The notes under the pieces are model-generated. The model saw nothing but the letters and a program-made list of their open reading frames with translations. It was not told where the DNA came from and did not search any database. The translations under genes and the position numbers were made by a program. This document shows, piece by piece, positions 60,866 through 63,057 of a DNA stretch of 64,000 bases. The stretch is from Escherichia coli (lineage in GTDB: Bacteria; Pseudomonadota; Gammaproteobacteria; Enterobacterales; Enterobacteriaceae): assembly GCF_003018235.1 (NCBI RefSeq), contig NZ_CP027437.1. The stretch is one strand, 5' to 3'. Numbering within the stretch: the stretch's first letter is position 1; each line of letters begins with the position of its first letter.

Positions 60866-62017
60866 ATGTCACTTGTCACCGATCTACCCGCCATTTTCGA
60901 TCAGTTCTCCGAAGCTCGCCAGAAAGGCTTTCTCACCGTCATGGATCTCAAGGAGCGCGGCATTCCGCTGGTTGGCACCTACTGCACCTTTATGCCGCAA
61001 GAGATCCCGATGGCAGCCGGTGCAGTTGTGGTTTCGCTCTGTTCCACCTCTGATGAAACCATTGAAGAAGCCGAGAAAGATCTGCCGCGCAACCTCTGCC
61101 CGCTGATTAAAAGCAGCTACGGCTTCGGCAAAACCGATAAATGCCCCTACTTCTACTTTTCTGATCTGGTGGTCGGTGAAACCACCTGCGACGGCAAAAA
61201 GAAAATGTATGAATACATGGCGGAGTTTAAGCCTGTTCATGTGATGCAGTTACCGAACAGCGTTAAGGACGATGCCTCGCGTGCATTGTGGAAAGCCGAG
61301 ATGCTGCGCTTGCAAAAAACGGTAGAAGAACGTTTTGGGCACGAAATTAGCGAAGATGCTCTGCGCGATGCCATTGCGCTGAAAAACCGCGAACGTCGCG
61401 CACTGGCTAATTTTTATCATCTTGGGCAGTTAAATCCTCCGGCGCTTAGCGGCAGCGACATTCTGAAAGTGGTTTACGGCGCAACCTTCCGGTTCGATAA
61501 AGAGGCGTTGATCAATGAACTGGATGCAATGACCGTCCGCGTTCGTCAGCAGTGGGAAGAAGGCCAGCGACTGGACCCGCGTCCGCGCATTTTAATCACC
61601 GGCTGCCCGATTGGCGGCGCAGCAGAAAAAGTGGTGCGCGCGATTGAAGAGAATGGCGGCTGGGTTGTCGGTTATGAAAACTGCACCGGGGCGAAAGCGA
61701 CCGAGCAATGCGTGGCAGAAACGGGCGATGTCTACGACGCGCTGGCGGATAAATATCTGGCGATTGGCTGCTCCTGTGTTTCGCCGAACGATCAGCGCCT
61801 GCAAATGCTCAGCCAGATGGTTGAAGAATATCAGGTCGATGGCGTAGTTGATGTGATTTTGCAGGCGTGCCATACCTACGCGGTGGAATCGCTGGCGATT
61901 AAACGTCATGTGCGTCATCAGCACAACATTCCTTATATCGCTATTGAAACAGACTACTCCACCTCAGATATCGGGCAGCTCAGCACCCGTGTCGCGGCCT
62001 TTATTGAGATGCTGTAA
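60866..62017 (+). CDS. yjiM: 2-hydroxyacyl-CoA dehydratase-like protein (HgdB/BcrB-type, Cys-rich)
   Basis: ORF 60845..62017, ATG at 60866 after GGGGAAGGA; conserved cysteines. Confidence 0.8.
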   Translation: MSLVTDLPAIFDQFSEARQKGFLTVMDLKERGIPLVGTYCTFMPQEIPMAAGAVVVSLCSTSDETIEEAEKDLPRNLCPLIKSSYGFGKTDKCPYFYFSDLVVGETTCDGKKKMYEYMAEFKPVHVMQLPNSVKDDASRALWKAEMLRLQKTVEERFGHEISEDALRDAIALKNRERRALANFYHLGQLNPPALSGSDILKVVYGATFRFDKEALINELDAMTVRVRQQWEEGQRLDPRPRILITGCPIGGAAEKVVRAIEENGGWVVGYENCTGAKATEQCVAETGDVYDALADKYLAIGCSCVSPNDQRLQMLSQMVEEYQVDGVVDVILQACHTYAVESLAIKRHVRHQHNIPYIAIETDYSTSDIGQLSTRVAAFIEML

Positions 62018-62020
62018 GGA

Positions 62021-62794
62021 GTGGCAGTGGCATATTCGATTGGCATTGATTCCGGCTCAACCGCCACCAAAGGGATCTTACTGGCAGACGGCGTGATTAC
62101 GCGCCGTTTCCTCGTTCCAACACCCTTTCGCCCGGCAACAGCAATTACTGAAGCCTGGGAAACTCTGCGCGAAGGGTTAGAAACAACGCCGTTTCTGACG
62201 CTCACCGGCTACGGACGGCAACTGGTGGATTTTGCCGATAAACAGGTGACGGAAATCTCCTGTCACGGACTGGGCGCACGGTTTCTTGCGCCAGCAACGC
62301 GCGCAGTAATCGACATCGGTGGTCAGGACAGCAAAGTGATTCAGCTTGATGATGACGGTAACCTGTGCGATTTCCTGATGAATGACAAATGCGCGGCGGG
62401 CACCGGGCGTTTCCTGGAGGTGATCTCGCGCACGCTTGGCACCAGCGTCGAGCAACTCGACAGCATTACCGAAAATGTCACGCCGCACGCGATCACGAGT
62501 ATGTGTACGGTGTTTGCCGAATCAGAAGTGATCAGCCTGCGCTCAGCGGGCGTCGCGCCAGAAGCGATTCTCGCTGGAGTGATTAACGCGATGGCGCGGC
62601 GGAGTGCCAATTTCATTGCTCGTCTCTCCTGTGAAGCGCCGATTCTGTTTACTGGTGGCGTTAGTCATTGCCAGACGTTTGCCCTGATGCTGGAATCTCA
62701 TCTGGGAATGCCGGTAAATACCCATCCTGATGCGCAATTTGCTGGCGCAATTGGCGCAGCGGTAATTGGTCAACGAGTGAGAAAACGCCGATGA
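62021..62794 (+). CDS. yjiL: BadF/BadG/BcrA/BcrD-type ATPase (putative activator of yjiM dehydratase; [4Fe-4S] CxxC)
   Basis: 257-aa ORF with ASKHA ATPase N-terminus IGIDSGSTATKG and DKCAAGTGRF motif. Confidence 0.8.
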   Translation: MAVAYSIGIDSGSTATKGILLADGVITRRFLVPTPFRPATAITEAWETLREGLETTPFLTLTGYGRQLVDFADKQVTEISCHGLGARFLAPATRAVIDIGGQDSKVIQLDDDGNLCDFLMNDKCAAGTGRFLEVISRTLGTSVEQLDSITENVTPHAITSMCTVFAESEVISLRSAGVAPEAILAGVINAMARRSANFIARLSCEAPILFTGGVSHCQTFALMLESHLGMPVNTHPDAQFAGAIGAAVIGQRVRKRR

Positions 62795-63057
62795 AAGAGT
62801 TTTTATTTTTATTTCACTCCACGGTCGGCGTCATACAAACCCGTAAGGCGTTGCAGGCAGCGGGCATGACTTTTCGCGTCAGCGATATTCCCCGTGATTT
62901 ACGCGGCGGCTGCGGGTTATGCATTTGGCTGACCTGTCTGCCCGGCGAGGAAATACAATGGGTGATCCCTGGGCAGACCGAAGCGATATATTGCCAGCAG
63001 GGCAGCGACTGGCAGTGTGTGGTGCATTACGATTCAGAAGCGTCAACCAGGCAATAG
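62791..63057 (+). CDS. Small protein (88 aa), DUF3343-like, co-transcribed with yjiM-yjiL
   Basis: ORF overlapping yjiL stop (ATGA); Cys-rich; domain call by resemblance only. Confidence 0.45.
   Translation: MKEFLFLFHSTVGVIQTRKALQAAGMTFRVSDIPRDLRGGCGLCIWLTCLPGEEIQWVIPGQTEAIYCQQGSDWQCVVHYDSEASTRQ

Follow-up and report, generated by a model that had tools for sequence, protein, structure and literature searches.

What do the products of yjiM, yjiL and ytiA do for Escherichia coli? We studied these genes in a 64-kb stretch of E. coli DNA (the window), where they lie on the + strand between positions 60866 and 63057. ORF calling bore out the three same-strand open reading frames (ORFs) that an earlier note on this DNA had described there, and that the note had taken for a dehydratase-like trio. 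Our analysis leads to another assignment: we are confident that yjiML-ytiA encodes an ATP-driven reductase of the double-cubane cluster protein (DCCP) type together with an accessory cysteine protein. The whole statement, an FNR-activated, ATP-driven, low-potential double-cubane reductase plus a cysteine carrier that serves selenium or sulfur mobilization, is one towards which we lean rather than one that we regard as settled. The literature describes double-cubane [8Fe-9S] enzymes as ATP-driven reductases that resemble nitrogenase, and the papers searchable here report no physiological substrate for them, in agreement with the earlier remark that the substrate in E. coli is not known.

Profile searches placed YjiM in the DCCP family. 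YjiM scored 529.4 bits against the NCBIfam model NF040772 (double-cubane-cluster-containing anaerobic reductase; cutoff 350), matching model positions 1-372, and 405 bits against Pfam HGD-D, with the full domain covered. In contrast, its scores fell far under the cutoffs of the dehydratase subunit models HadC (93.8; cutoff 700) and HadB (18.3; cutoff 750), and the same was true of the benzoyl-coenzyme A (CoA) reductase subunit models BzdN (78.6; cutoff 453.8) and BcrC (57; cutoff 421). The best solved relative of YjiM was the DCCP of Carboxydothermus hydrogenoformans (6ENO/7YYL; E=1e-74 over residues 26-383), followed at a greater distance by BzdN (2e-19), MbdN (1e-17) and a dehydratase beta subunit (5e-13), and the PDB search returned no entry for YjiM itself. 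The published DCCP motif comprises seven cysteines, six of which are cluster ligands while one lies next to the cluster, near the opening (PMC7317905). All seven are present in YjiM (C40, C59, C78, C108, C273, C302 and C335), with spacings of 18/18/29/164/28/32 that differ from the published pattern by no more than a few residues. Nine YjiM cysteines (40, 59, 78, 93, 108, 273, 302, 304 and 335) align with cysteines of 6ENO. Across 30 diverse DCCPs, down to 33% identity, C78, C108, C302 and C335 were invariant, and C40, C59, C93 and C273 were kept in at least 90%; the cluster cysteines, whose lack on alignment the earlier note had named as a refutation of its proposal, are thus kept. A six-frame phmmer search of the window revealed no second HGD-D gene, the sole match being yjiM itself. 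In comparisons with gammaproteobacterial orthologs by the Nei-Gojobori method, the ratio of nonsynonymous to synonymous substitution rates (dN/dS) was 0.04-0.07 for yjiM, 0.07-0.16 for yjiL and 0.13-0.23 for ytiA. From its sequence we conclude that YjiM is a member of the DCCP family and the predicted [8Fe-9S] catalytic component.

YjiL is the ATPase partner. The earlier identification of a BcrAD/BadFG-type ATPase held, with 255.9 bits against Pfam BcrAD_BadFG (cutoff 31.5) and 362 bits against TIGR00241 (cutoff 125.4); the score against the BzdQ model was 161 (cutoff 380). Its solved relatives were HgdC (1HUX; 2e-52), HadI (1e-51), MbdQ (2e-50) and DCCP-R (7YYL_E; 8e-48). The CxxC cluster motif that had also been ascribed to YjiL did not survive: a C..C pattern search found no CxxC in YjiL or YjiM, and CxxC is no feature of the HgdC-type activator family. 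Both cluster cysteines of YjiL are instead separate residues, in DKC and SMC, that align with Cys127 and Cys166 of HgdC (1HUX). RefSeq still names YjiL a putative 2-hydroxyacyl-CoA dehydratase activator. We predict that YjiL is an HgdC/DCCP-R-type ATPase, a homodimer bridged by one [4Fe-4S] cluster that would donate electrons to YjiM. We regard the earlier comparison with ATP-driven electron-transfer activators as correct in its logic, which is one of low-potential electron transfer.

The closest comparison is therefore with the C. hydrogenoformans pair DCCP/DCCP-R (CHY_0487/0488; 6ENO, 7YYL), by the E values of 1e-74 for YjiM and 8e-48 for YjiL. The two genes are adjacent there as well, the seven motif cysteines and both reductase cysteines are kept, and both systems are within NF040772. 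By analogy, ATP-coupled injection of electrons into an [8Fe-9S] cluster would be expected for YjiM/YjiL. Unlike the Carboxydothermus protein, in which N-terminal helices narrow the substrate channels, YjiM aligns to 6ENO only from DCCP residue 62 onward, such that the N-terminal extension is absent. A review accordingly lists YjiM/YjiL as a class II double-cubane system, without channel-closing N-terminal helices and with a larger substrate expected (PMC7317905). Because YjiM has no such helices, its site should take something larger than acetylene; acetylene, hydrazine and azide are reported as artificial substrates of the Carboxydothermus enzyme only. The E. coli operon also differs in having a third gene, encoding a DUF3343 protein, and YjiM, unlike the Carboxydothermus enzyme, is known from sequence alone.

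The third gene had been noticed earlier as an overlapping 88-residue ORF containing cysteines, and it does overlap yjiL, by an ATGA shared between the ytiA ATG and the yjiL TGA, and does encode five cysteines (positions 41, 44, 49, 68 and 76). A domain search of this protein, suggested in the earlier note, returned PF11823 (DUF3343/'Se_S_carrier') at 48.4 bits (cutoff 25). The K-12 counterpart is ytiA (b4715, 85 residues), which is already annotated as DUF3343/'putative Se/S carrier'; the family name 'Se_S_carrier' is a comparative-genomics proposal (PMC5322559). The sole CxxC of the trio is C41-G-L-C44 of YtiA. We aligned YtiA with 28 enterobacterial homologs of 51-85% identity from Escherichia, Citrobacter, Klebsiella, Raoultella, Kosakonia, Phytobacter and Atlantibacter. 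Cys41, in DIPRxLRGGCGL, was invariant in all 29 sequences and Cys44 was kept in at least 90% of them. The first 45 residues were strongly conserved and the C-terminal third varied freely. The 21 DUF3343 proteins encoded next to DCCPs likewise all have the cysteine of the xCG motif. Over ytiA codons 1-47, comparison with the closest ortholog gave a dN of 0.019 and a dS of 0.26. The small ORF is thus conserved, a point on which the earlier note had staked its proposal, and ytiA is a real gene under purifying selection. An AlphaFold2 model built from the 29-sequence alignment (predicted local distance difference test score, pLDDT, 88.6) has a ferredoxin-like fold, a beta-alpha-beta-beta-(alpha)-beta-beta sandwich in which Cys41 ends the 33-42 loop ahead of strand 43-49. 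The top Foldseek matches of the model were weak and were PII proteins, and no solved DUF3343 structure turned up in the structure searches with YtiA. As a separate observation, YtiA varies unusually strongly in its C-terminal third within Escherichia: the protein has 88 residues here versus 85 in K-12, and relative to another Escherichia locus it is 78% identical, as compared with 96% for YjiM.

The layout of the three genes is compact (Table 1). A Shine-Dalgarno sequence (AAGGA, 60856-60860) lies 5 nt ahead of the yjiM ATG, and the gap between yjiM and yjiL is 9 nt with the RefSeq start of yjiL. ORF calling put this start at GTG 62021 and RefSeq at GTG 62027; the latter is better placed because an AAGGAG at 62016-62021 precedes it by 5 nt. 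Wherever a gammaproteobacterial locus had sufficient downstream DNA (eight loci), the order was yjiM-yjiL-DUF3343, and the start/stop overlap was usually retained. These loci come from an Escherichia genome, Superficieibacter, Citrobacter, Cedecea, Hafnia, Morganella and Aeromonas (seven named genera) and from a proteobacterial metagenome-assembled genome. Within the species, 5386 of the 5426 complete E. coli genomes contain the region 60700-63300, nearly always at 95-99% identity, and the trio is annotated there. We conclude that yjiM-yjiL-ytiA is a single translationally coupled operon. The allele in this window is a rare one, as identity to the region reaches 99% in only 10 of the 5386 genomes.

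Table 1. Features of the yjiM-yjiL-ytiA operon, in window coordinates.
Feature	Coordinates	Strand	Basis or comment
yjiN-yjiM intergenic region, 115 bp	60751..60865	+	presumed promoter/5' untranslated region of the operon
yjiM, predicted class II DCCP, 383 aa	60866..62017	+	NF040772, Pfam HGD-D, 6ENO/7YYL homology
yjiL, predicted HgdC/DCCP-R-type ATPase ('archerase'), 255 aa	62027..62794	+	BcrAD_BadFG, TIGR00241, 1HUX
ytiA, DUF3343/'Se_S_carrier' small protein, 88 aa	62791..63057	+	PF11823, K-12 annotation b4715
operon end / border to apparent AT-rich strain-variable insertion	63058..63366	.	composition profile

Anaerobic expression, which the earlier note had wanted examined, is already on record. 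A genome-scale study of FNR lists yjiML (b4335) among the FNR-bound operons with FNR-dependent anaerobic induction; its entry stands in the block before the 'directly repressed' category and is marked as having no transcription start site in the peak (PMC3688515). In O157:H7, yjiM increased 2.8-fold with other FNR genes as oxygen was exhausted (PMC2241611), and a 2025 preprint also places the yjiM operon in the FNR regulon.

To which pathway the reductase might belong was approached through its relatives. An exhaustive HMMER search with YjiM gave 373 cluster representatives at E<=1e-30. For gene neighborhoods we scanned a single genome of each species for the pattern [VIL][VI][GA]ETTCDG and kept the best 80 among the at least 600 matches listed, 9 of them gammaproteobacterial and 71 from Firmicutes, the DCCPs of the latter being 52-66% identical to YjiM. 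Within about 6 kb around each DCCP, ORFs were called and searched with YjiL, YjiM and an iterated DUF3343 profile; neighbors were then clustered by BLAST and recurrent clusters named by NCBIfam and Pfam models. A phmmer search with YjiL found an activase near the DCCP in 54 of the 80 loci. DUF3343 genes were present in 12 of the 71 Firmicute loci (78-83 bits in Pfam where checked), and seven of these 12 directly adjoin the DCCP or the activase. Other recurrent neighbors were a cysteine desulfurase of family TIGR01977 (10 loci; 446 bits, cutoff 377), YedF (TIGR03527; 9 loci; 214 bits, cutoff 110) and SelD (3 loci; 396 bits, cutoff 125). At least one of these four markers occurred in 17 of the 71 Firmicute loci, and a selenium-associated LysR protein (NF040786; 367 bits, cutoff 250) was found in some loci.

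The gene orders at these loci differ. Locus L070 reads LysR_Se, one unnamed gene, then desulfurase-YedF-DUF3343-DCCP-activase; L045 reads DUF3343-desulfurase-YedF-activase-DCCP; and L065 and L067 share desulfurase-DUF3343-DCCP-YedF-MtaA-like. In L019 and L041 the array is YqeC-YqeB-YedF-SelD-DCCP-activase-MocA-like followed by xanthine dehydrogenase (XDH) subunits, with YqeC at 188 bits (cutoff 73) and YqeB at 381 bits (cutoff 220) in this type of cluster; in L019 a xanthine permease lies upstream and XDH-like subunits come after. In L035, L069 and L072, a DUF3343 gene also separates long DCCP paralogs of class-I-like type, each passing NF040772, from their activase. Thus the Firmicute selenium clusters (SelD, YedF, TIGR01977, DUF3343, LysR_Se and YqeB/YqeC) resemble the E. 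coli operon in that a YjiM-like DCCP, an activase and a DUF3343 gene stand contiguously in them (L070, L045, L065, L067, L019, L041 and L022). They differ from it in that the selenium genes of E. coli lie elsewhere on the chromosome, leaving the minimal trio alone together, and the role of the DCCP in the Firmicute clusters is itself a bioinformatic inference. Published observations point the same way: 955 of 970 NF040772 proteins come from SelD-positive genomes (Haft preprint), DCCP has been 'provisionally linked to selenium' (PMC10418091), and DUF3343 has been linked to YedF and selenocysteine (Sec) lyase, with an activase and HGD-like genes as its STRING partners in Slackia (PMC5322559).

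Several further features of the relatives were recorded. YjiM-like DCCPs adjoin MtaA-like methyltransferases, a corrinoid protein and an AcsV/RamA-like corrinoid activase in L066, L065, L067, L076 and L050; this MtaA/corrinoid neighborhood is the 'type 1 mlp' cluster, which has been proposed to function in methyl-selenide recycling. Among ten long representatives checked, DCCP-activase and DCCP-PucR helix-turn-helix fusions exist, and no DCCP-DUF3343 fusion was seen. One of the proteins, P0242 (722 residues), consists of a YjiM-like DCCP, 51% identical over residues 1-383, and a PucR-type helix-turn-helix at the C terminus; it may be a true fusion of reductase and regulator or the result of wrongly joined gene calls. 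On three more distant DCCP contigs (two of about 3-4 kb and one of 49 kb), an activase was adjacent in two and DUF3343 was found in none. A 'PatB-like' neighbor cluster (12 loci) was set aside, since its representative scored 306 against a PatB cutoff of 340 and E. coli yjiR was also drawn into it.

The model that we propose combines these lines. Its reductase part follows by homology from the solved DCCP:DCCP-R complexes (PMC9351452). The YjiL dimer would hold a bridging [4Fe-4S] cluster, accept one electron from ferredoxin or flavodoxin and dock on the YjiM dimer. ATP binding, hydrolysis and release would then push the electron uphill onto the double-cubane [8Fe-9S] cluster of YjiM, and the substrate would be reduced at the two unligated, sulfide-bridged irons of that cluster. 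The remainder draws on gene neighborhoods. Cys41 of YtiA may deliver or remove a chalcogen adduct (a persulfide, perselenide or related Se/S species) at the open class II channel, and the pathway served may be selenium, possibly sulfur, mobilization. In its likeliest version the product would be selenide for SelD, destined for selenoproteins and for the cofactor of selenium-dependent molybdenum hydroxylases. The selenoproteins of E. coli are the anaerobic formate dehydrogenases, and a selenium role would therefore fit anaerobic control by FNR. As judged from neighborhoods in other bacteria, YjiML-YtiA probably has a chalcogen role.

A number of points weigh against this model. The literature contains no experiment that ties YjiML or YtiA to selenium or sulfur, the physiological function is not known for any DCCP (PMC9351452), and the authors of the DCCP structure favor the view that YjiM acts on a CoA ester or some other large organic molecule (PMC7317905). 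In E. coli and the other Gammaproteobacteria no selenium gene except DUF3343 adjoins the operon. No activase was found nearby in 26 of the 80 loci, and 54 of the 71 Firmicute loci had no selenium marker within 6 kb; moreover, the enrichment of chalcogen genes is argued from repeated direct adjacency in differing gene orders, without random-window controls. DUF3343 is also found in organisms without SelD (PMC5322559), which means that the cargo of the carrier may be sulfur or something different. Finally, the 115-bp gap upstream of yjiM contains no FNR box (TTGATnnnnATCAA, up to 2 mismatches). The nearest FNR-like match, TTTATCCGTGTCAA at 60652-60665, is inside yjiN, and the number of such matches across the window was not above that in shuffles. 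A consensus scan of 60600-63500 for promoters and terminators found no sigma-70 or terminator match at the operon ends, with counts at the shuffle level; thus the promoter was not located in the intergenic region by consensus.

How do other explanations compare? If the trio were a ketyl-radical 2-hydroxyacyl-CoA dehydratase, YjiM would be an HgdB-like catalytic protein, YjiL a one-off activator supplying one ATP-energized electron and the small protein a third component. The membership of YjiM in HGD-D and of YjiL in the dehydratase-activator family speaks for this idea, as do the RefSeq name of YjiL and its slightly greater nearness to HgdC (2e-52) and HadI (1e-51) than to DCCP-R (8e-48). HgdAB/HgdC and HadBC/HadI indeed share the HGD-D and BcrAD_BadFG superfamilies with the trio, the HgdC structure 1HUX being the closest solved relative of YjiL. 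However, the known dehydratases are alpha/beta heterodimers that carry one three-cysteine [4Fe-4S] cluster per subunit and need activation only catalytically, whereas YjiM is encoded by a single gene, has seven motif cysteines rather than three, and is the only HGD-D protein encoded in the 64 kb. It also scores far under the HadC and HadB cutoffs and well over that of NF040772. No CoA-transferase or acyl-CoA gene lies in the neighborhood of the operon, and over the 80 loci the partners are selenium/sulfur genes rather than amino-acid fermentation genes, CoA-transferase and 2-hydroxyacid dehydrogenase families being absent among the recurrent neighbors. With three defining features failing, the dehydratase reading is already largely refuted by the family scores, and we regard it as very improbable. 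What remains of the earlier note on this point is the superfamily (an HgdB/BcrC-like protein with a BcrAD/BadFG ATPase); the dehydratase label falls to the NF040772 score of 529 bits, the seven cysteines and the lack of a second subunit.

Two other explanations accept the double-cubane reductase. In one, the substrate would be organic (a CoA thioester, an aromatic or heterocyclic ring or a purine intermediate), YtiA would be an accessory protein with a PII-like regulatory or a protective role, and selenium genes would be adjacent because the pathway needs a selenoenzyme. This is in line with the CoA ester or larger substrate that the DCCP structural group proposes for YjiM and with the weak PII matches of the YtiA model, and selenium genes were not seen at most loci. 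Class I benzoyl-CoA reductases (BzdNOPQ/MbdNOPQ) reduce a ring with an [8Fe-9S] cluster (PMC11971306) and share the ATP-dependent archerase module and an HGD-D-type subunit with YjiML, but they are built from four different subunits and act on an aromatic CoA ester, whereas just two relevant genes are found here, with no O- or P/Q-type second subunits. Xanthine permease and XDH-like hydroxylase genes in L019, L026 and L041 make purine-type substrates conceivable, and one DCCP representative is fused to a PucR-type helix-turn-helix. Yet DUF3343, with its one invariant cysteine, recurs by YedF, a desulfurase or Sec-lyase-like enzyme and SelD, which is typical of a relay and not of a PII-type regulator. 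The DCCP and activase sit between SelD and MocA, in the cofactor-maturation part of the cluster and not among catabolic genes, and NF040772 proteins are almost confined to SelD-positive genomes. We rate an organic substrate as tentative and somewhat unlikely. The other explanation reverses the dependency: YtiA, with the desulfurase and YedF where present, would supply or repair the bridging mu2-sulfide, or a selenide, of the double-cubane cofactor. The cofactor has one extra bridging chalcogenide, and Haft mentions, as a formal possibility, a selenium-bridged cluster, by which the correlation with SelD would be explained. Because DUF3343 directly adjoins both the short and the long DCCP subfamilies, a role at the level of the cofactor fits better than one at the level of the substrate. 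On the other hand, the C. hydrogenoformans DCCP acquired [8Fe-9S] when overproduced in E. coli without a dedicated partner, 59 of the 71 Firmicute DCCP loci have no DUF3343 within 6 kb, and a maturation factor leaves the place of the pair between SelD and the molybdenum cofactor genes unexplained. Such a reversal appears quite improbable to us.

Returning to the selenium/sulfur mobilization model, much about the trio is already known: the double-cubane naming (a 2020 review and RefSeq), the annotation of ytiA, activation by FNR and the link to selenium have all been published. What we add is modest, namely that DUF3343 is the fixed third gene of the gammaproteobacterial operon, that it is a recurrent immediate neighbor of both DCCP subfamilies, and that in some Clostridia the DCCP-activase pair is embedded in a YqeB/YqeC/SelD cofactor cluster. 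We also considered a bolder proposal, in which YjiM/YjiL and YtiA would constitute the missing ATP-driven step of selenium assimilation, whereby Se(0) or perselenide bound to Cys41 is reduced, or an organoselenium adduct cleaved, to selenide for SelD, or in which the enzyme would carry a selenium-bridged double-cubane cofactor; we judge it unlikely. Should either version be true, a physiological role would for the first time be known for a double-cubane enzyme, and E. coli would have supplied it; the selenium reading, if it holds, would also explain part of the way in which cells come by the selenide that selenophosphate synthetase uses. E. coli is the easiest organism in which to find the substrate, because its version is minimal, belongs to the core genome, is controlled by FNR and comes with a dedicated cysteine carrier.

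The surroundings of the operon differ between strains. Its neighbors are yjiN (DUF445), mdtM, a pentapeptide-repeat gene and yjiK. In K-12, yjiK follows ytiA after 64 nt; here and in strain WEC the pentapeptide-repeat gene intervenes. The G+C content drops from about 0.55 to about 0.31 directly past ytiA (63058-64000), and an ORF from 63367 runs past the end of the window; its WEC counterpart is a 2139-nt pentapeptide-repeat protein gene that K-12 does not have. The AT-rich segment after ytiA looks like a strain-variable, horizontally acquired insertion. On the other side, the genes at 58188-62794 (mdtM-yjiN-yjiM-yjiL) correspond to a 'yjiL-mdtM gene cluster' that, in the form in which PMC8801401 cites Krizsan 2015, is credited with altered susceptibility to proline-rich antimicrobial peptides. 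This effect probably reflects transport by MdtM and not a function of YjiL.

Elsewhere in the window, an intact gene for a 318-residue Rpn-family recombination-promoting nuclease is present at 56773-57729 on the - strand; its counterpart in K-12, rpnD, is annotated as a pseudogene. Two ORFs at 49105-53943, also on the - strand, match positions 491-1072 and 100-485 of one YjiT-family model (STY4851/ECs_5259; 1090 positions), and a 340-residue ORF lies between them on the opposite strand (50910-51932), suggesting that a yjiT-like gene was split by an insertion. A complete 4-hydroxyphenylacetate catabolism cluster (HpaG, HpaE, HpaD, HpaI, HpaX, HpaA and HpaB, all over their NCBIfam cutoffs) occupies 16637-27354 between tsr and btsT; it is absent at that position in strain WEC, which otherwise matches this window at 99.9% in the yjiM region.

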